64,000 nt of DNA, taken from NCBI GenBank assembly GCA_964568075.1, contig CAZMOM010000004.1:89227-153226 (forward strand), in the 5' to 3' direction. The notes under the pieces are model-generated. The model saw only the letters and a program-made list of their open reading frames with translations, was not told the DNA's origin and did no database searches. Of the stretch, positions 49,006 through 63,381 are shown one piece after another. Position numbers and translations under genes: made by a program. Position 1 is the first letter of the stretch, and each line of letters starts with the position of its first letter. This DNA is from an uncultured Gammaproteobacteria bacterium. GTDB taxonomy: Bacteria; Pseudomonadota; Gammaproteobacteria; Steroidobacterales; MnTg04.

Positions 49006-50841
<1,836 letters not shown>

Positions 50842-50922
50842 TTCGAGTCGGTAAGACCCGATTCCCAGGTAGTGCCGACACGACTGACCGTGTGGATATA
50901 AACCCTGCGCTTCTGACACAGC

Positions 50923-50968
50923 ATTTAACGGTGTTATATTGCTCCATCTTTAGAATTAACTGTTAGGT
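50923..50968 (+). repeat. short attC-like or attI-like remnant preceding the first cassette
   Basis: atttaac (50923-29) ... gttaggt (50962-68). At 46 bp it is shorter than typical attC sites. Confidence 0.3.
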
Positions 50969-50980
50969 GGTGCAAAGACT

Positions 50981-51547
50981 GTGCGCAAGATTCTGGTCGC
51001 AATAATTCTTTCAGTCCCGTTCTTAATATCTGCGTCTGGCGAGGAACTAGACAAGTGGGAAGCTGCCGATCGGGAAACCGTACGACTTCCGCCTAGCGAT
51101 TTTCCGAACCTGCCAAAAAGCGTGAGAAACGATCTCGACGCACGGGGTTGTACGATTCCACAGGTATATTGCTGCAACCGCCAGCCGCACAATGTAATTA
51201 GCGGGCACTTCAAGAAATCCGGTCAGGTTGATTGGGCGGTCCTTTGTTCAATCGACCGCCAGTCAACTCTACTCGTCTATTGGGGCGGATCTGCTGAGAC
51301 CGTTTCGGAGCTATCAACTTCGGCCGACCAGCACTGGTTGCAGGGTATCGGCGGCGACAACGTTGGATTCGACCACGGTATCTCAACCGTTGATGCAAAG
51401 TACATAACGGTTCATGCTCGCTCGTACGGTGGCGAAGTACCGGCGGTACTCGATCATGAAGGGATCGATGACGGGTACATGGGAAAGGCTTCCATCGTCC
51501 GTTACTGGTTTGAAGGCGAGTGGCTTATATTGCGGGGAGCGGATTGA
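50981..51547 (+). CDS. cassette 1: secreted protein, unknown function
   Basis: 188 aa with a GTG start and the signal peptide MRKILVAIILSVPFLISASG. No recognised domain. Confidence 0.65.
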   Translation: MRKILVAIILSVPFLISASGEELDKWEAADRETVRLPPSDFPNLPKSVRNDLDARGCTIPQVYCCNRQPHNVISGHFKKSGQVDWAVLCSIDRQSTLLVYWGGSAETVSELSTSADQHWLQGIGGDNVGFDHGISTVDAKYITVHARSYGGEVPAVLDHEGIDDGYMGKASIVRYWFEGEWLILRGAD

Positions 51548-51557
51548 TCACAACACC

Positions 51558-51657
51558 ACCTAACCAGGCGCTGAACTTGACACCAAGCATCTGTCACGCA
51601 GCTTGCATACGCAACCTACGCGCCAGATACTTGGCGCAAGTTAGCTAAACGTTAGGT
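51558..51657 (+). repeat. integron attC site 1
   Basis: ACCTAAC (51558-64) and its perfect complement GTTAGGT (51651-57). The inner arms gctgaacttg..ccaag / cttggcgcaagttagc pair with bulges and are separated from the core boxes by about 5 unpaired nt. Confidence 0.8.
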
Positions 51658-51772
51658 GGCATAGTCGACATTGTGCCGTTCCCGTGTCCGCTTCCGACCC
51701 AAAGCGAACCTTCGACATTCAATGTCACGATTGCCTAAGTTATAAAAAGTACGAGTTAACGAACAATCCGAC

Positions 51773-52273
51773 ATGGAACCTAAATACATCGCAAGAATAC
51801 TATTACTAATTGTTTTCGCGACGATTCTAATCGGCTGTGAACGACGTCCAGAGATAATCTTGGATCGAATGCTTCAAGCGGAAAATCTTGAGGAATTTAA
51901 TAGGTACGCAGAACGGGCTCGAGCACTTGAACAAGATGGCATTCCCTTATTATTGGCAGTACTCGAGGACAGTCTGACGACCCGCTACAGCCTGCTTAGT
52001 TACGGTAAGACAAATACCTGCCTTATGCATCTGCACGAACTGGCATCTGAGGGGATTTACACGGTTGAGGAAGTTCCGACGTTGCTTCGGGTGATCAACG
52101 AGCAGATCGCGATTATGGATACGCTCGTCACGGCGGAGATTCTTGAAATGATTACCGGAGTTGATGTTGGTTATGATGAGGAGTTCGCTACTAGCTACGC
52201 GCCCAGCGATAATGCAAAGCGAGAAAGAATGATTACCGATTGGGAACGCTGGTATGAAGCAGCGTCAAAATAG
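51773..52273 (+). CDS. cassette 2: putative lipoprotein, unknown function
   Basis: 166 aa with the lipobox-like LIGC after a hydrophobic N-terminus. No recognised domain. Confidence 0.65.
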   Translation: MEPKYIARILLLIVFATILIGCERRPEIILDRMLQAENLEEFNRYAERARALEQDGIPLLLAVLEDSLTTRYSLLSYGKTNTCLMHLHELASEGIYTVEEVPTLLRVINEQIAIMDTLVTAEILEMITGVDVGYDEEFATSYAPSDNAKRERMITDWERWYEAASK

Positions 52274-52295
52274 CTCAATGGTCTCGCGATATGCC

Positions 52296-52398
52296 ATCTA
52301 ACCAGGCGCTGCACTGGCCGCCTTTCCGTATCTGTCACGCCGCTTGCATACGCAATAGCCGCGCCAGATACTGGGCGCAAGTGAGCTAAACGTTAGAA
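52296..52398 (+). repeat. integron attC site 2
   Basis: ATCTAAC (52296-302) ... GTTAGAA (52392-98). The internal sequence is nearly identical to that of attC 1 and attC 4. Confidence 0.75.
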
Positions 52399-52409
52399 GG
52401 CGCAAGCAC

Positions 52410-52865
52410 ATGCCAATAGAATTCGACAATGTAGATCACTGCGAGGACTTTATTCGTCTCAACGAGCAATGGATCTCTGAGCACTTCTCAATCGAGGAGT
52501 CCGATCGCAAGTTGGCCGCCAATCCATTTAGGATCGTCTCCGACGGAGGTCATATCATAAGCCTGGTTGAGAATGGTTGTGTCATTGGTGTATGCGCACT
52601 GTTCAAGATCAGTGAGGATCGCTATGAACTCGCGCGAATGGCCGTAGAGCCCAGCGAGAGAGGCAAGGGTTACGGCGAGGCACTGATCACCGCGGCCCTC
52701 AGTCGTGCGCGCGACAAAGGAGCCTCAAACATATACCTCAACTCAAATACGGTGCTTGCTCCTGCTATCGCTCTTTATCGCAAGCATGGGTTTAAAACAG
52801 TGTCGGAAGGACCTCATGCGGAGTACGCTCGCTGCAACATCGTGATGGAATTGCGCTGGAAGTGA
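52410..52865 (+). CDS. cassette 3: GNAT family N-acetyltransferase
   Basis: 151 aa with RMAVEPSERGKGYGEALI (acetyl-CoA binding Q/RxxGxG/A) and ALYRKHGF. Confidence 0.8.
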   Translation: MPIEFDNVDHCEDFIRLNEQWISEHFSIEESDRKLAANPFRIVSDGGHIISLVENGCVIGVCALFKISEDRYELARMAVEPSERGKGYGEALITAALSRARDKGASNIYLNSNTVLAPAIALYRKHGFKTVSEGPHAEYARCNIVMELRWK

Positions 52866-52899
52866 CGCTCCAAAAGACGGCGAGCGCGGGAGTGGCGCC

Positions 52900-52972
52900 T
52901 TCTAACAATACTTTCAACACGGACGCACAACACGCTGCGCGTGTTGTGCGCCGGTTAACGTGAACGTTAGAT
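52900..52972 (+). repeat. integron attC site 3 (short, different sequence class)
   Basis: ttctaac (52900-06) ... GTTAGAT (52966-72), with the central palindrome gcgcacaacacgc/gcgtgttgtgcgc. Confidence 0.6.
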
Positions 52973-53012
52973 GGCGAGTCGCCAGCGTCCGCAGGTACTT
53001 GGGAGCACAATA

Positions 53013-53447
53013 ATGTTTGCCGAATCGCTCAAAGTTCGGATATTGCTTTTTGCCACAGTAATCGCTGCCCCAACTTGGGCGCAGGAAATACCGCCTGACA
53101 TATTTTCAATTCGGCCCAATGATCTGACCTGGCAAGAAAGTACTGTTGGCTGGGACAAGGCTGAGCTTTACGGTGACATGACCAGTAGCGAATATTCTGT
53201 GGTTCGGTTACGAATGCCGCCGAATTGGGAGGCGCCTGTACACAAGCATGTTCGGACGAAGCTTGAAGTGGTGAGAGTATTGAAGGGAATCCTATTCCTT
53301 GCATTCGGTGAAGATTCAAATCGGGAATCCGCAGTGGAGTATGGTCCTGAGTCCTTCATTGTCTATGCGGAGGGTACCTCAGTTCGAATGTTTACCGGCG
53401 ATGAAGAAGTGTTGGTCGAAATCACTCATCTACCGCGCGCTGAATGA
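53013..53447 (+). CDS. cassette 4: secreted cupin-like protein
   Basis: The signal peptide MFAESLKVRILLFATVIAAPTWA follows the RBS gggag. The ORF-track start at 52971 lies inside the attC core. Domain assignment is weak. Confidence 0.6.
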   Translation: MFAESLKVRILLFATVIAAPTWAQEIPPDIFSIRPNDLTWQESTVGWDKAELYGDMTSSEYSVVRLRMPPNWEAPVHKHVRTKLEVVRVLKGILFLAFGEDSNRESAVEYGPESFIVYAEGTSVRMFTGDEEVLVEITHLPRAE

Positions 53448-53478
53448 CTCGTCGGGATTGCACGCGTGGGTAATCGCC

Positions 53479-53578
53479 ATCTAACCAGTCGCTGCACTTG
53501 CCCCTGGCTATCTATCACCCCTCTTGCATACGCAACAGCCGCGCCAGATACTGGGCGCAAGTGAGCTAAACGTTAGGT
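53479..53578 (+). repeat. integron attC site 4
   Basis: ATCTAAC (53479-85) ... GTTAGGT (53572-78). It belongs to the same sequence class as attC 1 and attC 2. Confidence 0.8.
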
Positions 53579-53584
53579 GGCTTC

Positions 53585-54001
53585 ATGCAGGTCGTTAGAT
53601 TGCTCATGAAACTGATATTTGGAACATTTGCAGCAGCACTAGTCGCGGTTGTCTTGTTGGTCTATATCGCTAAACCGGAGGTACCTGAAGTAAGCGGTAT
53701 ACCGGACTATGATGCTGGGGCCGGCTGTCTCCGTGAAATCCCAAGACAATACGATCCAGAATTTTTCACTTTTAAAGGATGGGTCAAGGCTTTGTACGCT
53801 TACCACGCTGACAAGTGGGGGATAGAAATGAGCCCAGGACTACTCAGCTACTACAAGAGATACTTTCAGTTGCAACTGGATGTAGATTGTTACGTCCGGT
53901 CGGCTAATGATACAGGCCTCAATTTAACGCTGTCGCCAACGGAATTTAAAGCAGTTTATAACGCGATTGCAGAGAACCATGGACTTGAAAGAATTCGCTG
54001 A
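53585..54001 (+). CDS. cassette 5: N-terminally anchored protein, unknown function
   Basis: 138 aa with one N-terminal TM helix. No recognised domain. Confidence 0.6.
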   Translation: MQVVRLLMKLIFGTFAAALVAVVLLVYIAKPEVPEVSGIPDYDAGAGCLREIPRQYDPEFFTFKGWVKALYAYHADKWGIEMSPGLLSYYKRYFQLQLDVDCYVRSANDTGLNLTLSPTEFKAVYNAIAENHGLERIR

Positions 54002-54007
54002 TACGCA

Positions 54008-54082
54008 ATCTAACCATTACCTCCAGCCGGCCGCCTCCGTCGCTGGCGCTCCTCCGGCATCGGCTGAGGCAAGCCGTTAGGC
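54008..54082 (+). repeat. integron attC site 5 (short class)
   Basis: ATCTAAC (54008-14) ... the canonical GTTAGGC (54076-82), with GC-rich paired arms. Confidence 0.7.
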
Positions 54083-54095
54083 GTCAGTTAAGGAT

Positions 54096-54521
54096 GTGGT
54101 CATGACCATTCGCGGTAGCTGCCTTTGTGGCGGCGTTCAATACGAGATTCTTGGCAAGCTACATGACGCCGGGAATTGCCACTGTTCGATGTGCCGTCGA
54201 ACGCACGGTGCTGCGTTCGGTACCTATGCGCGTGTTGATGCAGACGAGTTCCGGTGGCTGTCTGGCGAGGATCTCATTACCGCTTACGAATCCTCGCCTG
54301 GCGGTCATCGCTGTTTTTGTCGTCAATGCGGCTCGCCTTTGGGGGCTGTGGCGGAAGGTGGAAAATTGAGTTGGGTTACGCTGGGCACTGTTACAGGTGA
54401 TCCGGGGTTGCGTCCCGAAACCCATATTTTCGTGGGCTCGAAAGCGCCCTGGTATGAGATAACAGACCATCTCCCCCAATTTGATGAATGGCCACCGGGC
54501 TTCGGACCTGAATCATTCTGA
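54096..54521 (+). CDS. cassette 6: GFA (glutathione-dependent formaldehyde-activating / CENP-V) family protein
   Basis: Zinc-Cys motifs GSCLCGGVQY, CHCSMCRR.HGA and CRQCGSPL. Confidence 0.85.
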   Translation: MVMTIRGSCLCGGVQYEILGKLHDAGNCHCSMCRRTHGAAFGTYARVDADEFRWLSGEDLITAYESSPGGHRCFCRQCGSPLGAVAEGGKLSWVTLGTVTGDPGLRPETHIFVGSKAPWYEITDHLPQFDEWPPGFGPESF

Positions 54522-54527
54522 TCTGCC

Positions 54528-54649
54528 GCCCAACAAATCGCGGAACTTGCCGCCGGGCAGCATCTGTCACAGTTCTTGCAGGATTATTGATATTTGCATT
54601 CGTAACAACCGTACCAGATACTTGGCGCAAGTAAGCTTAGACGTTAGGC
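54528..54649 (+). repeat. integron attC site 6
   Basis: GCCCAAC (54528-34) ... GTTAGGC (54643-49). Its right half (ccagatacttggcgcaagtaagct) is shared with attC 1, 2 and 4. Confidence 0.7.
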
Positions 54650-54664
54650 GCCAACGAGACGACG

Positions 54665-55102
54665 ATGCGAACTTCTGAGAAATGGGACCAAATGACCGAC
54701 GCCGATTGGACTTCATTCGCGGCCTCTTGGTTAGAAGAACTTCACAGTCCTATCGAACCAACTGATTCTGATATCGGCCAATCGGTAGTTTTTATGAACT
54801 TTACGGCAACCCCAGCGCAACAGTGGAAATTCATTGTTGCAGCAGTTGCATGCGCCAAGTCCGATGAGGAACTTGGGCATCTCGCCGTGGGGCCAATGGA
54901 GCATTTGCTCGGGCACCACGGAGAGAAAATTATCGCCCAAGTTGAGGATCGCTCAAAAAGTGATTCTGCTTTTGCGAGGATGTTGACGGGAGTGTGGAAA
55001 TATATGATTTCTGATGAAGTATGGAAGCGCATCCAGGCCATTCAGGCCGGCGTCAAAGACCCTTTGGACCCCCCGGTTGGTAATGACGCAAGTGGTGCCT
55101 GA
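54665..55102 (+). CDS. cassette 7: cytoplasmic protein, unknown function
   Basis: 145-aa ORF with no recognised domain. Confidence 0.6.
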   Translation: MRTSEKWDQMTDADWTSFAASWLEELHSPIEPTDSDIGQSVVFMNFTATPAQQWKFIVAAVACAKSDEELGHLAVGPMEHLLGHHGEKIIAQVEDRSKSDSAFARMLTGVWKYMISDEVWKRIQAIQAGVKDPLDPPVGNDASGA

Positions 55103-55200
55103 CAAGGCGCTGCACTGGCCGCCGGTCATGATTGTCGCGGGTCTTGCATTTAGAGCAACACAAGCGCCAATCACCGGCGCCAGTGGGCTAAGACGTAGGC
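55097..55200 (+). repeat. degenerate attC-like site 7
   Basis: gcctgac (55097-103) ... cgtaggc (55194-200). Both core sites deviate from consensus. Confidence 0.4.
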
Positions 55201-55219
55201 AGCCCGGAGTGGTTCATCC

Positions 55220-55618
55220 ATGAGTCAAGATATTGGAATCGTAGCAATCTACGCAGCTCTCAATGGCTTGCTAATTCTCGGGCTCTCATACAACGTCGGA
55301 CGGCATCGCGCACGAACTGATTCGTTAACGCCGGGAGCCATGGGGGACGAGATACTGATTCGTGCTATTCGAGCTCATGGCAATGCAACCGAGTACATTC
55401 CACTGGCAATCGTTATGCTGCTCATTCTGGCGCTGCTGTCAGCCCCTTCCTCTCTGATCCACGGCCTCGGCGCTGGATTCACTTTCGGACGATTGGCTCA
55501 GGCTTTTGGTATAACTCGTACTAAACACCCGAACGCGATCCGATTCACTGGCAACCTATGCACTGGCTTGGTTTACCTCATCGGTTCAATCGCATGCATC
55601 TACTACGGAGTGGCTTAG
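55220..55618 (+). CDS. cassette 8: MAPEG family membrane protein
   Basis: 132 aa with 4 TM helices and the motif RAHGNATEYIPLAIV. It is a second MAPEG gene in the window (see 45775..46164). Confidence 0.75.
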   Translation: MSQDIGIVAIYAALNGLLILGLSYNVGRHRARTDSLTPGAMGDEILIRAIRAHGNATEYIPLAIVMLLILALLSAPSSLIHGLGAGFTFGRLAQAFGITRTKHPNAIRFTGNLCTGLVYLIGSIACIYYGVA

Positions 55619-55631
55619 TGGCCACACGGCT

Positions 55632-55730
55632 GCCTAACCACTCGCTCCAGCGGAGCAAGCGAAGCGTCACGCATTTTTCTTTCGCAAAAGTCGCGCCTTT
55701 TCACTGCGCCGCTGAGCTCAAACGTTATAT
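55632..55730 (+). repeat. integron attC-like site 8
   Basis: GCCTAAC (55632-38) ... gttatat (55724-30). The right core site is imperfect. Confidence 0.5.
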
Positions 55731-55755
55731 GTAATACAGCAGGAGAGGTGCCGAA

Positions 55756-56103
55756 ATGGCGTCTGATTTAGATTTTGTCGAATTCGTAGTCGATCAAATG
55801 GAAAATGCCGGTGTTATTGCGTACAGAAAAATGTTTGGAGAATATGCGGTTTATTGTGAAGGCAAAGTCGTAGCGCTTATATGCGATAATCAGTTATTTA
55901 TTAAACCGACGAAAGCTGGTAAATCCTATATTGGTAATGTAGTAGAGGCGCCTCCCTATCCCGGAGCCAAACCGTCCTTTCTCATAGAGGAGCAAATCGA
56001 AGACAAAGATTGGATTAGCAACTTGGTGAGACTGACGGAAAGAGAGCTCCCGGAGCCCAAACCGAAGAAAAAACCGAAGCGCAAACGTGGAAAAAACACA
56101 TAG
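55756..56103 (+). CDS. cassette 9: TfoX N-terminal domain protein
   Basis: 115 aa. The FVEFVVDQMENAG.I.YRKMFGEYAVYC.GK.VALICDNQLF.K pattern is typical of the TfoX_N domain. It has a Lys-rich tail. Confidence 0.75.
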   Translation: MASDLDFVEFVVDQMENAGVIAYRKMFGEYAVYCEGKVVALICDNQLFIKPTKAGKSYIGNVVEAPPYPGAKPSFLIEEQIEDKDWISNLVRLTERELPEPKPKKKPKRKRGKNT

Positions 56104-56230
56104 CAAGTCATTCAAGTACGCAGCCTGGCGGCTGGCGGACGCCTGCAGCGCAGGCGCCGCTTAATTCAAGCGTTATGTGGCCGTTTTTTCTGGATTCTGA
56201 GGCGCTCCAAGAAATATAGCGCATCGGCAT

Positions 56231-56593
56231 TTAATCGGGTCCGCCCTCTTTTTGTGCATCGCTTTCTTTTTTTTCTCCGGGCCCCGATGAGACAGACAAA
56301 CTGGATTTCAGTTTGACGATCACGAGCAATAAAAAGGTAATGGCCCAAAAGAAAAGATAAAGCCAACCACCTTTACCAACAAAAACATTACTGACAAAAA
56401 TTACAATAAGTATCAAACTGAGAACGAGCAACAGATACTGTATAACACTGGCTGTCCTGCTTTGAACCAGCAACGCACCACAATTGGAACATTCGTGGCC
56501 TTTCACCGCGTTCAAAAAAATTCGATGCAGCAACGGCAACCGAAAACCGCACGAAGGACATCTTGATCGATAACTATTTTCCGATAAACTCAT
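56231..56593 (-). CDS. putative Rhs immunity protein: zinc-ribbon + two/three TM helices
   Basis: ATG 56593 overlaps the Rhs TGA as ATGA. Two CxxC pairs (CPSCGF, CSNCGA) are followed by strongly hydrophobic segments. The ORF-track start at GTG 56602 is also possible. Confidence 0.6.
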   Translation of the reverse strand: MSLSENSYRSRCPSCGFRLPLLHRIFLNAVKGHECSNCGALLVQSRTASVIQYLLLVLSLILIVIFVSNVFVGKGGWLYLFFWAITFLLLVIVKLKSSLSVSSGPGEKKESDAQKEGGPD

Positions 56594-59500
56594 TCGCCGC
56601 ACTCATCCTCACAATCGTTCCCCGCAGCAAGTATTCTGGCTGCGATAGCTCCGGCGATACCGCCTGTCGCGCCACCAACAGCACCGGTCACAGGGTCAGT
56701 ACCGATGGCGCCGCCTAACGCCCCGCTCACTGCGGCTGCTGTAGCGCCATCACCCAGAAGATCGCCTGCGACGGCACCAACCGCCGCACCTGCAGCAGAG
56801 CGCGCTTTACCGCCAGGACCAGAATTCGTTGCAACAGCCGCCATTCCTACTCCACCTGCAGCACCAACTTGCTGAATGACTATTGCCGACGCCATACCAA
56901 CGCCCGCTCCCCGAACCGCGCCAGCCAGTCCCAATGCAATAGCTCCAGGGATTCCTCCTACCACAGCACCGGTAATTGCTCCCGACACCAAACCGCCGAA
57001 GCCTCCGCCAATGCTCGCTGCAATCGCATTAATCTGGACTTGTGTTAAACAATACAGTCCATAAGGGTCGAAATAAACAATGGGACTGTTTTTGGCGTAT
57101 ACAAAAAGATTGATAGCAGCTGATTGACCTAACGGGTCGGTAGACACGTATCGACCAGTTCCTGGATCATAAAAACGAAAGTAGTTGTAATGCAACCCGG
57201 ACTCGGCATCGAAATACTGACCCGGAAACCTCAGGTTGAGTGTGACATTTGATCCATCTCCATCCGGATCGCCATCAGCGGCGACCCCCCCAAACCCATC
57301 ACCATCCCATCGCCAGACGATTTTCCCCGTATCATCGGTGCCACTGCGCACGGTCGCCAGGTGGTCGCTGTGCAAATAAGTCAACCTCTCCTCGGTCGTC
57401 GTCGTGACCTTGCCCTTGCCATTGCCATTGCCATTGCCATTGCCCTTGCCATTGCCATTGCCATTGCCCTTGCCCTTGCCATTGCCATTGCCATTGCCCT
57501 TGCCATTCCTTGTTGTCGTCGTGACCGGGCCGATTTGCGCTACCGGCCTGTTGCCAAGCCACAGATAGCTGGTCTCCGCCACTCCGCCGTCGGTAGTCTC
57601 GAGAATCAGATTGCCGCCAAGATCATAGTGATAGATCGTGGATCTCCCGTTCGCAATTTTTTTCACCCGCTGACCGAGCGCATTGTAGGTGTACACGCCA
57701 ACTTCTGTAATCGTCGTCTTTGGCTTACCCCTGTACTTGGTCGTGACAGCGGCTGACACAGACTGCAGGCGTCCGGAATCGTTGTAGGCCAGGTCCATCC
57801 CGCGCAAGGATGTGGTGTTGCCGGCGGCATCGAGAACCACGCTCTCACCGGCGATGGCGGTGAGCCGGTTCGAGAGGCTCAGGTAGTCATACGTACCACT
57901 GCTATCGCTGGTTCGATTGCCGTTGGCATCATAGGTAAATGCATCTCCGGCATAATTTCCCTGGTCGGTCTCCAGTCGATTCAGCGCATCATAGGTAAAC
58001 GACTGGTTCATGGCCGGATCGACAAGGTCTGTAATGCCCAGGATGTTCCCGACCGGGTCCAGGCCGTACGACTTATCCAGCAAGCCATTCATGGTGATAC
58101 CGGTTACCCGGTACGCCTGATCATAGGCATAATCCATCGACACGCCGTTGGCGTAGGTCATGGATGTGACTGGCCCAAATGGCTCATAGGCCGCGTTGCT
58201 AATAATCGCTGTCGTAACGCTGTCGACCGAGGTGTTGACCTGGGTCAGCTGTCCGGCGGCATCCCTGACATAGCTGACAATACGCCCGTCCGGGTAGGTT
58301 ATATCGGTGATATTGCCGGCACCGTCATACAGATAGCTGGTCGTATAACTGACGCCGTCGATGACTTTCACATCGCTTACGACGTCACCAAATGTGTTGT
58401 AGCCATAGGATGTTATGCCGCTTTGATCCGCGATCGCTGCTAATCTTGCAATGCCACTCGTTCCCGTGTCGAACGTATAGGTGACATTTTCGCTGGCGTC
58501 GGGATACTGTGTCTTCGTTACGCGATTCAGCACATCGTAACTGTAGGTGGTCGTGACGCCTCTGGCATCTGTCACGCCGACCACATTGCCTGCGATGTCG
58601 TGCGTGTAGAATATTTGTCCTCGATCGGGGCTGCTTTCTGACAACAGGTTGCCCAGGTCGTCATACTCGTAGGTTGTCAGGGCACCGTTTGGCGCATGAA
58701 CGCTGGTGAGATTATCGGTGACGTCGTAGCCATAGACGGTTGACCCAGACAAAGCATCGAGTGTGTCGGTCAATCGATTGAGAGGATCGTAGTTGTTCGT
58801 CGTCGCGTTCAGGTTGGCATCGGTCTCTGAATCCAGATTACCGAGCGCATCAAACAACAGGTCCGTAATGGAACTGCCATTGTTGATCGTATCGATGTTG
58901 TCCCAGATGTCATAAGTTTTCGTCAGCGTCCGCTTGAGCACATTGCTCGCGTCGTAAATCTTCTCCTCTGCCTGATTGCCTTTGAGGTCGTAGGTGTAAT
59001 CAATGTGATTGCCTAGCTCGTCGGTTACGGACAACAGGTTATGCGCCGCGTCGTAGGTATATGTCAGCGTTACACCAGCAGGCGACGTGTTGGTCTTAAG
59101 CTGCCCGGCGTTGTCGTAAGTCATCAACATCGTGCGTGCCGTACCACCGCTCGGCGACTGGCTGATGGTGGTCACCCGTCCCCTCAGATCGTAAATATAG
59201 GTAGTGACGAGGCCATTCGGATCGGTTGACTGCGTCAACCGACCTGCTGCGTCATAACTGTCATAAGTGGTGACGTGGCCCAATGCGTTGGTAACCGACA
59301 GCAGTTGACCGCATTCGGCGCCTGTCGCGCAATTGTAATAAGAAAATTTAGTTGTGTCGGAATCGTCCGTACGCGGACCGTCGACCGATGTAATCTGACC
59401 ATTGGTGTTGTACCGAAACGATATGCTTCGGCTCACGGCCGTGCCGTCTGGCCGATAACCATCGATCGTCACACTCTCGGGTAACTGCGCCGCGTTATAG

Positions 59501-61266
59501 GCCGTGATGACTTGCCGATCGTTGCCGGTGAATACGCTCGGCGATGTCACCTGCGCCAGGCGGCTCGTGTGGTTGTCGAGATACAGATAGCTCGTCAGCC
59601 TTTCTTCGGCCGTACCCACGGCTTCTGTTTTGCTGATCTTATGGTAGGTGTCGTAGGTGTAGCTGGTCTGAACGCCACGTTCATTGGTGGTACTGAGAAT
59701 TCGCCGTCTTTGGTCGCCGAAGGGATGAGCGTAAGCAATGCTTGTTGACTGCCCGCCAAATGCTGTGCCATTGACCCGTTTCGCCCAGCTAGTATCCGTG
59801 GTGAAAGAATAGGTCTTGATGTTCCCGGCGGCGTCAGTAACCAGCGTGTCGCCATTCGCTTCGTAGCTCAACGTGAGTCGTTCGTAACCACCCACATGTT
59901 CGGTCGAAATCGCACGACCGACCAGGTCGTACGCAAACATCGCAAATCGATCGCCATTTTCATCCGTAATCCCCGTCAGGTGGTTGGCGTATTTGATGTC
60001 CTCGTAGTGGTAGGTACGGACACTGCCGTCTTCGTGAGCGACGGTCGTAAGATTATTTCTCGAGTCATAGGCGTACTGGATAAGCTGTCCGTCCGGTGTT
60101 TGCACGCTTTCCAGGCGACCCAGGAAAAAGCCACTGGAATCGTAGTTAAACTTCAGCTGATGCCCGAACGGCCCGGTGACCGTATCGACCTGACCGGTGT
60201 TGTAGGTAATGGTCGTCGAACGACCCGCTTCGTCAACCAGCTCAACCAGCGCACCGGTTGCGTCATAGATTTCTCTCGCTCCGGTCTTTTGGTAAACGAC
60301 GAACTGATCAGCCTCTTTCTTGATGATCAGATCAACATTTTCATAAGCGATATAGGTATCGGTTGCGGAGTATCTCAGCGTATCCTGATGACCATCCCCG
60401 CGGATCAGTCCACTGGGATTTCCGCCATAAACAGTGATCCTGGCCTGGTAGTTATGCCGCCAGCCCACGCCGAGACCGGTCGATTTTTCTGAATTAAATG
60501 AATGATAAGTCCGTTCCAGCGATGGACCCGGACCCGTGTAATCCGATTCTTTCTGTAATTTGTCTCCGGAACCAACATCGCAGGGATTACCGACAGAGCA
60601 CGATTGAATCAGCGGCCGACCGGTTACTTTTCCGATATCGGGAAGAAAGCAATGAGGAATTGCCAGCCTGGACCAAAAAGGAGACTCGCATGCTATCGGG
60701 CGCCGTCTCGACCCACCGTCGTATGCTGCCATCGGAATGCAAGTTTCCAACGTACTGGACCATCCCCAGGTATCAACGTCGTAGTTACGATCCTGGTCCT
60801 CGACAATTTCGTACCACCAGCCATCCCATGGCGTATACCAATCTCCATCCGGCGTAACTGCCACAGGACTGCCAGCACAGTTGGCAGGCAACTGACTTTC
60901 ATATTTCACTTTCAGAAACGAAACATACTCTGCCTCGGTCGCATACAACTCGACATCAAAAAAATGCGTACTGTATTCCCACACTCCTATAACGGGATCT
61001 TTGGGCTCCGCGACAAATTTAAACCAAACGTGCTGGTCCGTGGTAATCCTGTCTACACCCGTTTCCTCGGTCAGGTATTCACCGTTATTGGTTACAACTT
61101 CCATTCTTGCGACGGCTTCGGCCTTGCTTTGAAAGGTCAAGAATTCTGTATCATTCGCCGCCTTCCATTCCCAGGGCTCATAGGCCGACACCTGATAGGA
61201 GACAATCAAGCTAAGAATTAAGGCAATCAACAACATCGACATTTTTTCTGGCGCAGGTAACTTCAT
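56590..61266 (-). CDS. Rhs/YD-repeat toxin with Sec signal peptide and glycine-zipper-like C-terminal domain
   Basis: Many YD repeats (YxYDxxGN/RL..), an N-terminal plug-like GNPCDVGSGDK, a DHL motif (YLHSDHLATV) and the core end RFYDPGTGRYVSTDP...YFDPYGL, followed by a 154-aa Gly/Ala-rich tail. ATG 61266 (MKLPAPEK.., RBS ggag) is preferred. The ORF track starts at 61314. Confidence 0.92.
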   Translation of the reverse strand: MKLPAPEKMSMLLIALILSLIVSYQVSAYEPWEWKAANDTEFLTFQSKAEAVARMEVVTNNGEYLTEETGVDRITTDQHVWFKFVAEPKDPVIGVWEYSTHFFDVELYATEAEYVSFLKVKYESQLPANCAGSPVAVTPDGDWYTPWDGWWYEIVEDQDRNYDVDTWGWSSTLETCIPMAAYDGGSRRRPIACESPFWSRLAIPHCFLPDIGKVTGRPLIQSCSVGNPCDVGSGDKLQKESDYTGPGPSLERTYHSFNSEKSTGLGVGWRHNYQARITVYGGNPSGLIRGDGHQDTLRYSATDTYIAYENVDLIIKKEADQFVVYQKTGAREIYDATGALVELVDEAGRSTTITYNTGQVDTVTGPFGHQLKFNYDSSGFFLGRLESVQTPDGQLIQYAYDSRNNLTTVAHEDGSVRTYHYEDIKYANHLTGITDENGDRFAMFAYDLVGRAISTEHVGGYERLTLSYEANGDTLVTDAAGNIKTYSFTTDTSWAKRVNGTAFGGQSTSIAYAHPFGDQRRRILSTTNERGVQTSYTYDTYHKISKTEAVGTAEERLTSYLYLDNHTSRLAQVTSPSVFTGNDRQVITAYNAAQLPESVTIDGYRPDGTAVSRSISFRYNTNGQITSVDGPRTDDSDTTKFSYYNCATGAECGQLLSVTNALGHVTTYDSYDAAGRLTQSTDPNGLVTTYIYDLRGRVTTISQSPSGGTARTMLMTYDNAGQLKTNTSPAGVTLTYTYDAAHNLLSVTDELGNHIDYTYDLKGNQAEEKIYDASNVLKRTLTKTYDIWDNIDTINNGSSITDLLFDALGNLDSETDANLNATTNNYDPLNRLTDTLDALSGSTVYGYDVTDNLTSVHAPNGALTTYEYDDLGNLLSESSPDRGQIFYTHDIAGNVVGVTDARGVTTTYSYDVLNRVTKTQYPDASENVTYTFDTGTSGIARLAAIADQSGITSYGYNTFGDVVSDVKVIDGVSYTTSYLYDGAGNITDITYPDGRIVSYVRDAAGQLTQVNTSVDSVTTAIISNAAYEPFGPVTSMTYANGVSMDYAYDQAYRVTGITMNGLLDKSYGLDPVGNILGITDLVDPAMNQSFTYDALNRLETDQGNYAGDAFTYDANGNRTSDSSGTYDYLSLSNRLTAIAGESVVLDAAGNTTSLRGMDLAYNDSGRLQSVSAAVTTKYRGKPKTTITEVGVYTYNALGQRVKKIANGRSTIYHYDLGGNLILETTDGGVAETSYLWLGNRPVAQIGPVTTTTRNGKGNGNGNGKGKGNGNGNGKGNGNGNGNGKGKVTTTTEERLTYLHSDHLATVRSGTDDTGKIVWRWDGDGFGGVAADGDPDGDGSNVTLNLRFPGQYFDAESGLHYNYFRFYDPGTGRYVSTDPLGQSAAINLFVYAKNSPIVYFDPYGLYCLTQVQINAIAASIGGGFGGLVSGAITGAVVGGIPGAIALGLAGAVRGAGVGMASAIVIQQVGAAGGVGMAAVATNSGPGGKARSAAGAAVGAVAGDLLGDGATAAAVSGALGGAIGTDPVTGAVGGATGGIAGAIAARILAAGNDCEDECGE
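57409..57510 (-). repeat. 17 tandem hexanucleotide units (ggcaat/ggcaag on the coding strand) encoding (GN/GK)17 inside the Rhs gene
   Basis: The plus strand reads cttgcc/attgcc repeated from 57409 to 57510. The peptide is RNGKGNGNGNGKGKGNGNGNGKGNGNGNGNGKGK, flanked by TTT and VTTTT. Confidence 0.95.
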
Positions 61267-61725
61267 AATGAAACAGCTCCGGACAATTCGTTTAGTACTG
61301 CCAATGGCTCGCATTCTTTAGTGAAAAACGCCGAGCAAGCATTGGCGACATGGTCCGCAGCATGTTTTCAGGTTCAGTACGTTCTTGCGAGATTCGAATC
61401 CGAACAGATCGATCAGAAATTCGATTAGCTGCTGATAAAGCAACCTACAGGTTGAAAATAGGTGCTGGTGTTAGGTTATGAAGATATTAATTGATTGGTT
61501 TTTGCTTGAATTCGAAATTGTATGTTTTTAAAACCTGGCGAATCGCAGATTCAGGTCGACAGAACTGGCTCGACTTTTTCGGCGTCCCTGCCATACCCAA
61601 TATCTGCTTCTGACAACCTTGGGATCGTGCTTTGGTGAAGTTGCATTTACCAGCCGGAAAACTGGCTCAAATAAGTAAATAACTTAACACCGGCACCATT
61701 TTCAAACTCGGCACCGTTGTCAAAC

Positions 61726-62538
61726 TCACCATGTCAAACGCGTTGTCGGGCCCGTGAATGGCCATCCGCGTTGCTGCGCGTAGAATTTCAAGTCCACGAT
61801 TCGATCGCCCCCGGACGGATGCGTCGAAAAATAAGTAACGAGGTCGGGAATGCCGTAATCATCACGGATCATTCGGTCAAAGAACCCCCAGGATTCATTC
61901 ACATGACCGTATTCTGCATACACGATTTCGAGTCCGAAACTGTCGGCATCGGATTCCTGCTCCCGGCTAAATCTACGCATGGTCAAATCGGCAATGCTGA
62001 TGCCAAAACTCCCACCTCCTTCATTGCTGCTCAACGCAGCGAACAAAATACCCAGAGCGATCCCCCGGCCAAGCTGGCGAATATGATCGCGATTTCGAAA
62101 GTGCCCGAACTCGTGACCCAACACAAATGCGAGCTCATTCTCCGTTTCGACGCGATCCAACAACGCCGTCGTAACGATAATCAGTCCACCGGGAAGCGCC
62201 ATCGCATTGGGCACTTCCGATTCACTGACTTCGAGACGAAACGTGTACGGTGAATCCGGCCAATGACGTGCCAAACGCTCGACCAATGCGCGTGTTTGGC
62301 TGTCCCGGTCATCATCGGCTTTTATCGAAATGAGATCGTCCGGTGTCCAGGTTGAAAAGAATTTTGCCTCCGTCTCGGTGGACACGAACGTCAAGACCAG
62401 GTCAACAAAAAAGACCACCGCCAGTACGATGACCACGAAAATTGCCGACAGACCTAAAACCAGTGTGCCCGCTTCGGTAAGCGGATGCACGTCGCTGACA
62501 TTAATGCCTTCGCGTGGCTTCTTTGGTATGAATTTCAC
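61726..62538 (-). CDS. membrane-anchored M48 family zinc metallopeptidase
   Basis: N-terminal TM helix, the zinc motif FVLGHEFGHFRNRDH, and downstream E..AD. Confidence 0.85.
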   Translation of the reverse strand: MKFIPKKPREGINVSDVHPLTEAGTLVLGLSAIFVVIVLAVVFFVDLVLTFVSTETEAKFFSTWTPDDLISIKADDDRDSQTRALVERLARHWPDSPYTFRLEVSESEVPNAMALPGGLIIVTTALLDRVETENELAFVLGHEFGHFRNRDHIRQLGRGIALGILFAALSSNEGGGSFGISIADLTMRRFSREQESDADSFGLEIVYAEYGHVNESWGFFDRMIRDDYGIPDLVTYFSTHPSGGDRIVDLKFYAQQRGWPFTGPTTRLTW

Positions 62539-62558
62539 TGCAACTTGCGGACCCGCAG

Positions 62559-63032
62559 TTACGTCAGTGTAACGGCGGTGCCGAACGCAAGCATTTCAAC
62601 TCCTGCCGTGCCCTGACCGTCCTTGCGGGCACTGGCCAGTCGCGACGTTTCGAGACGCACATTGACAACCGCATCATAGCCACGAGCTTTCGCGTCTTCG
62701 ATCATCCGCAGCACAGCCTCACGGCGTGCCCGATCCAGGAGCGGTTCGTACGTTTTCACCCGTCCTCCGATGATGCCGCGCAAGCCGGCAATGATGCGTT
62801 TGAAATAATCCAATGACACCACCACACTACCAGTCACCAGTTCAGCGGACCCAACACGCCAATCGGACGGTAACGTAGCAAACGTTATGACTGGAAAACC
62901 GTGCATCTTCTCTTCCCGGGCACGTATTTCCTTGTAGTGCTTTTTCTCAATGGCGTTGCCTATAAAATAGGCAGCGATCAGCACGAGCAGCGGGATGCCA
63001 AAATTCACGATCAAGTCAAAATAATCTGTCAT
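62559..63032 (-). CDS. TM-anchored YbjQ/UPF0145 family protein
   Basis: MTDYFDLIVNFGIPLLVLIAAYFIG (TM helix) followed by a YbjQ-like domain (GGR...YE.LL...R.EA..RM...A...G.DAVVN.R...S, F.GTAV). ATG 63032 follows the RBS aggag. The ORF-track start at 63122 would overlap the upstream gene. Confidence 0.75.
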   Translation of the reverse strand: MTDYFDLIVNFGIPLLVLIAAYFIGNAIEKKHYKEIRAREEKMHGFPVITFATLPSDWRVGSAELVTGSVVVSLDYFKRIIAGLRGIIGGRVKTYEPLLDRARREAVLRMIEDAKARGYDAVVNVRLETSRLASARKDGQGTAGVEMLAFGTAVTLT

Positions 63033-63042
63033 GAAGGTGCTC

Positions 63043-63381
63043 CTAGGCGACGCGCACGGCGGTTCCGTACGCGAACAATTCGGCTGCACCTTGAGCAACT
63101 GAACTCGTTGCATAGCGCACATTTATGACCGCGTTTGCACCCATGGATTGCGCTTGCGCGACCATACGTTCAGTCGCCTCACGCCGGGATTCTTGCAACA
63201 GCTCCGTGTAACCTTTTAGCTCGCCACCTACGATGTTTTTGAAACCAGCCATGATGTCCCGACCGATGTGTTTGGCCCGCACAGTATTGCCTGTGACTAG
63301 CCCATAAAATTCGGCGATCTGTTTGCCGGGGACGGTCTCCGTGTTGCTCAAAATAATAGGGTATCTGCTTTCGGGGCTCAT
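63043..63381 (-). CDS. YbjQ/UPF0145 family protein
   Basis: 112 aa with the typical G..I.....LV.G..V.......D..A....I.GGE...Y..L....R..A..RM...A...GANAV...R pattern. Confidence 0.8.
   Translation of the reverse strand: MSPESRYPIILSNTETVPGKQIAEFYGLVTGNTVRAKHIGRDIMAGFKNIVGGELKGYTELLQESRREATERMVAQAQSMGANAVINVRYATSSVAQGAAELFAYGTAVRVA

Follow-up and report, generated by a model that had tools for sequence, protein, structure and literature searches.

A family of glycine-zipper Rhs tails with predicted membrane immunity partners points to a candidate membrane-acting toxin module in an uncultured gammaproteobacterium

What does an Rhs protein carry when the stretch behind its core looks like neither a nuclease nor a deaminase, and what is the role of the small membrane protein gene that overlaps its stop codon? 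The question is raised by a locus on contig CAZMOM010000004.1 (GenBank assembly GCA_964568075.1) of an uncultured Gammaproteobacteria bacterium, of which we analyzed a stretch of 64,000 nucleotides (positions 89,227 to 153,226 of the forward strand), referred to here as the window. An earlier reading made from the letters of the window, without database searches (the sequence-only reading), had proposed that the last 154 amino acids (aa) of the Rhs protein form a membrane-inserting toxin and that the next gene encodes the matching immunity protein. Judged from the sequences and by analogy with characterized toxins, the locus is probably a polymorphic Rhs toxin/immunity module with a cargo that acts on membranes and not as an enzyme. 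With 154 aa plus 120 aa the module is a small one, and it lies in the window, together with the protein that carries it, as follows.

Positions 56590 to 61314, minus strand: Rhs/YD-repeat protein of 1574 aa (open reading frame list, translation, and Pfam, NCBIfam and PDB matches).
Positions 57055 to 57258, minus strand: Rhs-associated core with the aspartyl autoprotease motif, aa 1353-1420 (TIGR03696).
Positions 57136 to 57138, minus strand: predicted catalytic D1393 (alignment to Tse5).
Positions 57067 to 57069, minus strand: predicted catalytic D1416 (alignment to Tse5).
Positions 56593 to 57054, minus strand: C-terminal cargo of 154 aa, aa 1421-1574, a predicted membrane-inserting glycine-zipper toxin.
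Positions 56231 to 56593, minus strand: predicted immunity gene of 120 aa, overlapping the Rhs stop.

The 1574-aa protein matches the Pfam family RHS_repeat in 13 stretches (E 2e-73) and the NCBIfam models YD_repeat_2x (TIGR01643, E 1.9e-48), RHS_core and Rhs_assc_core, and its top sequence matches in the PDB are Rhs cages, Tse5 among them. Its Rhs core is closed by the motif YFDPYGL (aa 1414-1420). The match to TIGR03696 stops at aa 1420, the L of this motif, which is model position 76 of 76, and confirms the coordinates of the 154-aa tail that the sequence-only reading had placed directly after YFDPYGL. When the protein is aligned with phmmer to the Tse5 shell chain (8cp6_B), its STDPLGQ and YFDPYGL pair with QDPLGL and YDPTGL of Tse5, and the alignment ends on the last residue of the Tse5 chain, opposite L1420. 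D1393 and D1416 therefore correspond to D1141 and D1164 of Tse5, with L1420 corresponding to L1168, and the spacing between the two aspartates is 23 residues in both proteins. D1141 and D1164 are the catalytic residues of Tse5, which is cleaved before Ile1169, the Edman N-terminus of its C-terminal toxin (Tse5-CT) being IIPLV (PMC9637101). As far as the alignment can tell, the window protein has the intact two-aspartate motif found in Tse5 and other Rhs/TcC proteins, which cut after DPxGL, and release of its cargo by cleavage after L1420 is predicted.

The tail that would be released is rich in glycine and alanine, as had been noticed before, but the earlier figure of about 60 percent does not hold: 39 Gly and 38 Ala among 154 residues make 50%. 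The repeated glycine spacing described for it is real and goes beyond composition in shuffle tests. At lag 4, the tail has 18 Gly-Gly pairs where shuffles have 9.4±2.4 (z 3.6); z is 2.05 at lag 8, and there is depletion at lags 5 and 6. Glycine-zipper motifs, defined as [GAS]xxxGxxxG or GxxxGxxx[GST], number 16 versus 5.7±2.4, with 0 of 3000 shuffles as high, and across 24 family tails this enrichment has a mean z of ~4. The acidic, cysteine-containing end NDCEDECGE is likewise seen in the translation, and the cysteines of the tail are C1422 (tail position 2), C1568 and C1572 (NDC-EDE-C). The cargo has a calculated mass of ~13.5 kDa, or 87.7 Da per residue, and would begin with YCLTQ. Compared with two relatives, the window tail has a dN/dS of ~0.13-0.14, a rough value with dS near saturation, which argues that the tail is a selected protein domain.

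We generated a predicted structure of the tail with AlphaFold2 (AF2) from a 20-sequence alignment. The model is all-helical (helices 5-63, 65-75, 80-100, 104-116 and 121-145), with a pLDDT of 70.3 and a pTM of 0.60, and the top 19-residue Kyte-Doolittle (KD) hydropathy of the tail is 1.8, at aa 26-44. Searches of Pfam and NCBIfam with the window tail and 12 family members gave nothing above threshold. The best profile match of the window tail is to PF05433, 'Glycine zipper 2TM domain', at 13.9 bits versus a cut-off of 24.2 (E 0.053), and this weak match appears in just one of the 12 family members. Sequence searches of the PDB with the tail or the family profile returned only chance matches (antibodies, alpha-synuclein, flagellin). 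A Foldseek comparison of the model with the PDB, which the sequence-only reading had suggested as a check, gave no match with E <0.7; the weak matches were all polytopic membrane proteins, and we treated this as an effect of composition. Enzymatic families were absent from the Pfam, NCBIfam, PDB and Foldseek/PDB results alike, in agreement with the earlier statement that the cargo is not one of the usual nucleases or deaminases. Nor did any profile place the tail in a non-toxin structural family, an outcome that would have spoken against a toxin, PF05433 being the best profile match and lying below threshold.

With the tail alone as query, a word-indexed protein search found one relative, and an exhaustive phmmer search over 1.84 billion representatives found 12 matches, all of them Rhs tips. 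Further relatives came from a profile search and from scans, made with a 4-sequence alignment, of GTDB genomes and Joint Genome Institute (JGI) metagenomes. The total is ~30 relatives, each of them placed directly after an Rhs core that ends in DPxGL. At their sources they are annotated either as hypothetical or as 'RHS repeat-associated core domain-containing protein'. The relative nearest to the window tail (64% identity) comes from a Methylothermaceae metagenome-assembled genome (MAG); other carriers are Hydrocarboniphaga effusa AP103, an uncultured Hydrocarboniphaga MAG, Solimonas soli DSM 21787, two Roseateles MAGs, Ca. Endobugula sertula and a Gallionellaceae MAG. The 30 distinct complete tails are 135-178 aa long and 41-57% Gly+Ala. 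Cys2 stands inside the start motif [YWF]CL[ST]xxQIxAIA in 29 of them, the pair of cysteines near the end fits [NQS][DNS]C-x(1-3)-C in 26, and 28 have exactly three cysteines. The start motif, together with GNDC-x(1-3)-C at the end, can serve as diagnostic for the family. These comparisons support the view that Rhs proteins carry the tail as a cargo in its own right, C-terminal and conserved, and that it is neither nuclease or deaminase nor junk. The tail family, its cysteine signature, its Sec context and its zinc-ribbon partner are unnamed in Pfam and NCBIfam and were not found in the literature searched. The type of system, in which an Rhs protein bears a membrane toxin and a membrane protein gives immunity, is already known.

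The gene downstream of the tail has two recognizable parts.

Positions 56480 to 56560, minus strand: zinc ribbon made of CPSCG (C12, C15), 19 residues and CSNCG (C35, C38) (translation, alignment).
Positions 56303 to 56446, minus strand: two-helix membrane hairpin, ~aa 50-97, with the loop NVFVGKGGW (KD windows, AF2).

Both the ATGA overlap with the Rhs gene and the make-up of the product were correctly described in the sequence-only reading: the Rhs stop codon TGA occupies 56590-56592 and the downstream ATG 56591-56593, and the product combines two CxxC pairs (C12-x2-C15 and C35-x2-C38) with two hydrophobic segments expected to form transmembrane (TM) helices. The KD windows reach 3.04 at aa 54-72 and 2.25 at aa 77-95, with a charged C-terminal tail after them. 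A single-sequence AF2 model has helices at 35-71 and 77-99 with a pLDDT of ~70-83 and resolves the hairpin but not the zinc ribbon.

In a word-indexed search against 5.8 billion proteins, the sole match of the window partner was itself. Its relatives were found by reading downstream of the related Rhs tips, where a small predicted membrane-protein gene overlaps the Rhs stop or lies within a few bases of it in 17 of 17 distinct loci. Three architectures occur: an N-terminal zinc ribbon followed by two TM helices at seven loci (the window and the loci we designate L004, L005, L006, L012, L014 and L015), one TM helix followed by a C-terminal zinc ribbon at two (L010, L024), and two to four TM helices with no zinc ribbon at the remaining eight. 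The type of partner follows the subfamily of the tail. Orphan modules made of a tip and its partner, without a full Rhs gene, are present at L003, L006, L011, L012 and L016, and at L015 two tandem zinc-ribbon genes with two TM helices each (1330-1662 and 1677-2018) follow the Rhs tip. Polymorphism that is matched between tail and partner, modules that stand as orphans and partner genes in tandem together form the standard signature of polymorphic toxin/immunity systems (PMC3482391). Because the partner type tracks the tail subfamily and orphan modules occur, a toxin/immunity pair is supported, and the idea that the downstream gene encodes a plausible membrane immunity protein, proposed from the window by itself, gains from the comparison of all 17 loci, the co-variation of types and the orphan modules. 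The downstream membrane protein is likely the antidote of the tail.

Some of these loci have further peculiarities. Of the tandem pair at L015, one gene is possibly the cognate immunity gene and the other an additional one. In Solimonas soli (L009, 6775-7242), a fragment of another Rhs tip, an orphan, comes after the partner gene. The reverse-order partner, with an N-terminal TM segment and then CPxCG...CxxCG, is found at ~6500-6800 of L010 and at 3500-3802 of L024 and L025, and accompanies the 'YCLSPEAIGAISG...GQDCDC' subfamily of tails, that of Ca. Endobugula sertula included. Beside this tail family, zinc ribbons and TM segments have thus become linked in two different orders.

As for the kinship of the zinc-ribbon partners, an alignment of eight of them leaves the four cysteines as the sole invariant columns. 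TIGR04104, the cxxc_20_cxxc putative zinc finger, is matched weakly by all eight (E<=0.01, with 7.4e-7 as the lowest value). The window partner scores 21.1 bits against this model (E 3.1e-4), short of the curated cut-off of 45 bits, and 19.0 bits against DUF983 (PF06170; E 0.0018), short of the threshold of 22.6; a DUF983 match was seen in one of four partners scanned. The window partner also has sub-threshold zinc-ribbon matches and a weak match to PRK05978. TIGR04104 and DUF983 share with it the arrangement of CxxC, about 20 residues, CxxC and two TM helices, and the window partner may be considered at most a distant relative of TIGR04104. A toxin-immunity role for TIGR04104 or DUF983 was not found in the literature searched, where DUF983 turned up only in work on energy metabolism, the ancestry of mitochondria and marine nitric-oxide genes.

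The feature that bears on export of the Rhs protein lies at its N-terminus.

Positions 61183 to 61266, minus strand: Sec-type signal peptide, aa 17-44 (MKLPAPEK-MSMLLIALILSLIV-SYQVSA, with the predicted cut before YE), recognized by eye.

The assignment was made from a charged n-region, a 14-residue hydrophobic core and V-S-A before the predicted cut. The signal begins at the alternative start M17 (nt 61266), which a gene caller chose, for a product of 1558 aa, on L001, a metagenome contig 99.98% identical to the window. Six other full-length relatives have N-termini of the signal-peptide or lipoprotein type, and neither they nor the window protein contain a PAAR, VgrG or other domain of type VI secretion systems (T6SS). 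Within ~10 kb on either side of the Rhs gene, in the window and in L001, there are no T6SS genes; the genes found there encode an M48 peptidase, two YbjQ proteins, TfoX_N, MAPEG and similar products. A linkage to the T6SS was rejected on the lack of PAAR, VgrG and T6SS neighbors. The best reading of these sequences is a Sec-exported, T6SS-independent Rhs protein, and a 2012 classification has a class for such proteins, the 'T2SS/Sec-dependent' RHS toxins, T2SS standing for type II secretion system (PMC3482391). The closest full-length relative, the Rhs protein of the Methylothermaceae locus L004, carries a lipoprotein-type signal (...LSMSSC) and a Peptidase_C39-like domain (aa 187-299, L004 ~650-990, E 4.4e-7) ahead of its RHS repeats, unlike the window protein, whose first 240 residues have no recognizable domain.

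Taken together, the zipper periodicity, the all-helical AF2 model and the membrane-protein partners support the kinship in kind with membrane-inserting glycine-zipper toxins that the sequence-only reading had proposed. In the mechanism that we favor, the YD-repeat cage would enclose the ~13.5-kDa cargo until the cut after L1420 frees it. The released cargo would then reach the inner membrane of the target cell, where its marginally hydrophobic small-xxx-small helices may insert and oligomerize, and the oligomer would serve as an ion-conducting pore or ionophore through which the membrane potential collapses. The three conserved cysteines would, speculatively, form a disulfide in the oxidizing periplasm that joins the N- and C-termini of the cargo; such a bond between the tail ends is deemed likely because the protein is exported into an oxidizing compartment. 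The partner would sit in the inner membrane of the producer with both termini and the zinc ribbon in the cytoplasm and a short loop in the periplasm, and it would neutralize the toxin by helix-helix contact inside the bilayer. There is precedent for membrane depolarization by toxins of this general kind in Tse5-CT with Tsi5 (PMC9637101, PMC10684867), in the ionophores of contact-dependent inhibition (CDI) (PMC11630599) and in the LXG toxins (PMC12744356).

Several results weigh against this mechanism. We detected no sequence or fold relationship to any characterized membrane toxin or pore former, and the mechanism therefore rests on analogy and composition. The AF2 model of the tail is of medium confidence, and the Foldseek comparison gave it no PDB match with E <0.7. 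The tail is marginally hydrophobic, with 19-residue KD maxima of 1.2-1.8, of which only the one at aa 26-44 exceeds 1.6. The number of conserved cysteines is odd and is not accounted for by one disulfide. A cytoplasmic zinc ribbon has no obvious role against a membrane toxin, and the partners at eight of the 17 loci do without one. Lastly, no evident route leads across the outer membranes of the producer and the target cell.

If the module is real, the cargo may nevertheless kill by other means than a pore: it might block a protein or lipid carrier of the inner membrane, or it might aggregate in the manner of the bacteriocin CdzC/CdzD. We consider this unlikely. The genetic arrangement supports a toxin with a membrane immunity protein, yet it is silent on the mode of killing, and the cysteine triad and terminal motifs suggest a defined fold or interaction, not a generic amphipathic peptide. 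The Caulobacter proteins CdzC and CdzD, which are glycine-zipper proteins, reportedly kill by contact (PMC5380434), and Group 1 CDI ionophores need the target protein AcrB (PMC11630599). The extended glycine zippers of released toxin domains, however, have so far been linked to depolarization (PMC12744356, PMC9637101), and Pfam, family scans and Foldseek turned up no receptor-like or enzymatic feature. A change of target in place of a change of mode seems less probable still. The cargo could be aimed at the membranes of eukaryotic grazers or hosts, like the cargo of ABC-toxin TcC proteins, with the partner protecting the producer during export; a T6SS or CDI delivery apparatus was not found, and the family has a member in the bryozoan symbiont Ca. 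Endobugula sertula, both of which fit such a role. Symbionts of deep-sea mussels are the subject of a paper on toxin-related (YD-repeat) genes (PMC4612132). Matched immunity types and orphan modules in the free-living Hydrocarboniphaga, Solimonas and Roseateles fit bacterial conflict instead, and a TcA- or TcB-like partner was not seen near any locus, which makes us regard a eukaryotic target as quite improbable.

The remaining two explanations dispense with a toxin altogether. The tail might be a membrane anchor or assembly element that resembles the glycine-zipper two-TM segments of outer-membrane lipoproteins and tethers the Rhs cage, with the downstream protein as its assembly partner. The sole family match of any kind, the sub-threshold one to PF05433, points this way, and the Rhs protein appears to be Sec-exported. 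Against a tether, that match occurs in just one of 12 members, and the autoprotease motif ahead of the tail is intact, so the tail should be severed and enclosed in the cage. Orphan modules, tandem partners and switching of partner type are traits of toxin/immunity systems and not of anchors, and we find an anchor very improbable. The tail might also be a low-complexity or degenerate remnant and the downstream open reading frame a product of chance, to which the low-complexity composition of the tail and the failure of the partner to match anything but itself in the word-indexed search would lend some color. This explanation is effectively refuted, and we give it next to no credence: dN/dS is ~0.13-0.14, the end motifs and cysteine count are conserved, the periodicity goes beyond composition, and partners with four invariant cysteines stand at the same position in seven distinct loci. 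Chance low complexity was rejected as the source of the tail on the same periodicity, dN/dS and conservation of motifs and cysteines.

A membrane-acting cargo with a membrane immunity protein, the reading that we prefer, can be set beside several characterized systems. Tse5 and Tsi5 of Pseudomonas aeruginosa (PA2684 and PA2683) resemble the window module in the Rhs cage, in the two-aspartate motif with its 23-residue spacing and in the cut after DPxGL. Their cargo of ~150 aa (149 aa in Tse5-CT) is helical and non-enzymatic and inserts into membranes, as is predicted for the window cargo, and their immunity protein lies in the inner membrane with two TM segments, its gene standing beside that of the toxin (PMC9637101, PMC10684867). 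Unlike the window protein and its relatives with their signal peptides, Tse5 is PAAR-like at its N-terminus and dependent on VgrG and the T6SS, and the description of Tsi5 gives it two TM regions and no zinc ribbon. No protein of the length of Tse5 (1317 aa) is among the 12 phmmer matches in the 1.84 billion representatives. Whereas Tse5-CT starts with IIPLV and has a mass of 15,571 Da over its 149 aa (104.5 Da per residue), the window tail starts with YCLTQ and averages 87.7 Da per residue. We would like to note that the tail is set apart from Tse5-CT by this published N-terminus and mass and not by an alignment.

Tox-WTIP (Zhang et al. 2012, Biol Direct 7:18) is also a small, hydrophobic, helical C-terminal domain, and it is a predicted pore former found on signal-peptide ('T2SS') RHS-repeat toxins of proteobacteria (PMC3482391). 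Its defining motifs, RxxR and Wx[ST]IP, lie in two TM helices, whereas the window tail has no tryptophan and neither motif, and its ~150 aa are predicted to form four to five helices. The LXG toxins TelE, EsxX and TspA of type VII secretion systems (T7SS) combine a glycine zipper with membrane immunity proteins (PMC12744356), and EsxX additionally requires a soluble cytoplasmic immunity pair. Unlike the window module, they are Gram-positive and ride on an LXG/T7SS carrier without an Rhs cage, and no sequence similarity to them was detected. The CDI ionophores, that is, the C-terminal toxins (CdiA-CT) of E. coli EC93 and its relatives, are polymorphic, helical and depolarizing, have a putative glycine zipper, and are countered by CdiI immunity proteins that are small integral-membrane proteins (PMC11630599). 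They differ in being delivered by CdiB/CdiA two-partner secretion with a separate entry domain that uses AcrB-like target proteins, and no similarity between them and the tail was detected. Some features of the tail are also seen in peptides exported by other means. Class IIa microcins, of which microcin V is one, are rich in Gly and Ala, have a pair of cysteines at the C-terminus and act on the inner membrane from the periplasm. They are, unlike an Rhs cargo, small peptides with a double-glycine leader and export by an ABC transporter. A relationship to microcin V was rejected at an hhalign probability of 0.7%, obtained with a hand-typed MccV reference sequence.

What the locus may mean beyond the window depends on how much of this picture is accepted. 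In its fullest form, which we put forward only tentatively and with more doubt than confidence, the relatives would make up an unnamed and taxonomically scattered Gram-negative family in which a Sec-exported, T6SS-independent Rhs protein carries a cysteine-stapled glycine-zipper ionophore, active only outside the cytoplasm, and a zinc-ribbon protein with two TM helices confers immunity. The staple would join Cys2 to the C-terminal NDC-x-C pair in the periplasm. If this is true, it would give the small zinc-ribbon membrane proteins resembling TIGR04104 and DUF983 their first function, and Rhs toxins a delivery route that needs neither a T6SS, a T7SS nor an ABC-toxin partner. Membrane-depolarizing cargos of polymorphic toxins have rarely been characterized, the cases being Tse5, the ionophores of CDI and the glycine-zipper toxins of the LXG type. 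In the 2012 census of polymorphic toxins, Tox-WTIP was the single pore-forming domain (PMC3482391), and the tail family would add a second Rhs-borne membrane toxin, unrelated in sequence and recognizable by its diagnostic motifs. The Sec signal peptides also raise the question of how Gram-negative Rhs cages reach their targets without a contractile injector.

Two further features of the Rhs protein lie ahead of its C-terminal core domain.

Positions 60385 to 60591, minus strand: DUF6531 domain, aa 242-310 (Pfam PF20148, E 2.9e-12, 47.2 bits versus a cut-off of 24.1).
Positions 57408 to 57507, minus strand: hexamer tandem repeat in the Rhs core, in frame (Tandem Repeats Finder, period 6, 16.3 copies, 92% matches).

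We take the DUF6531 domain to be the N-terminal plug of the Rhs cage; aa 1-241 in front of it contain no Pfam domain at E<=1. The hexamer repeat reads TTGCCA x16.3 on the plus strand, or alternatively a 30-nt unit x3.2, and codes for an N/G/K insert from aa 1270 (RNGKGNGNGNGKGK...NGKGK) with TTTT on either flank. It stands just ahead of the C-terminal core domain, where slippage could change its length while keeping the frame.

Base composition differs between the parts of the locus. The immunity gene has a G+C content of 42%, compared with 55% for the window, 53% for the Rhs core and 60% for the tail, the high value of the tail being expected from its glycine and alanine codons. This contrast fits a tip-plus-immunity module that is exchanged horizontally.

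The surroundings of the Rhs gene differ on its two sides. Upstream on the same strand, the M48 peptidase gene and the two YbjQ-domain genes occupy 61726-63381 (minus strand), an arrangement that is repeated in L001 and was not seen beside the other family members examined. On the other side, nine small plus-strand genes fill positions 50900-56230 between glmS (49006-50841) and the Rhs module, and they include GNAT, GFA, DUF6869, MAPEG and TfoX_N genes. Repeats of ~105 nt lie between them (51556-51660, 52297-52401, 53477-53581, 54530-54637 and ~55099-55123), starting with ...CTAAC and finishing with GTTAG.... The arrangement resembles an attC cassette array of the integron type, here downstream of glmS; an intI gene was not seen. 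When folded as single strands, three of four repeats form long, imperfect hairpins (z -8.7, -2.0 and -2.6). L001 departs from the window inside this array, below 52382, and has other cassettes there, a RelE/HTH pair included.

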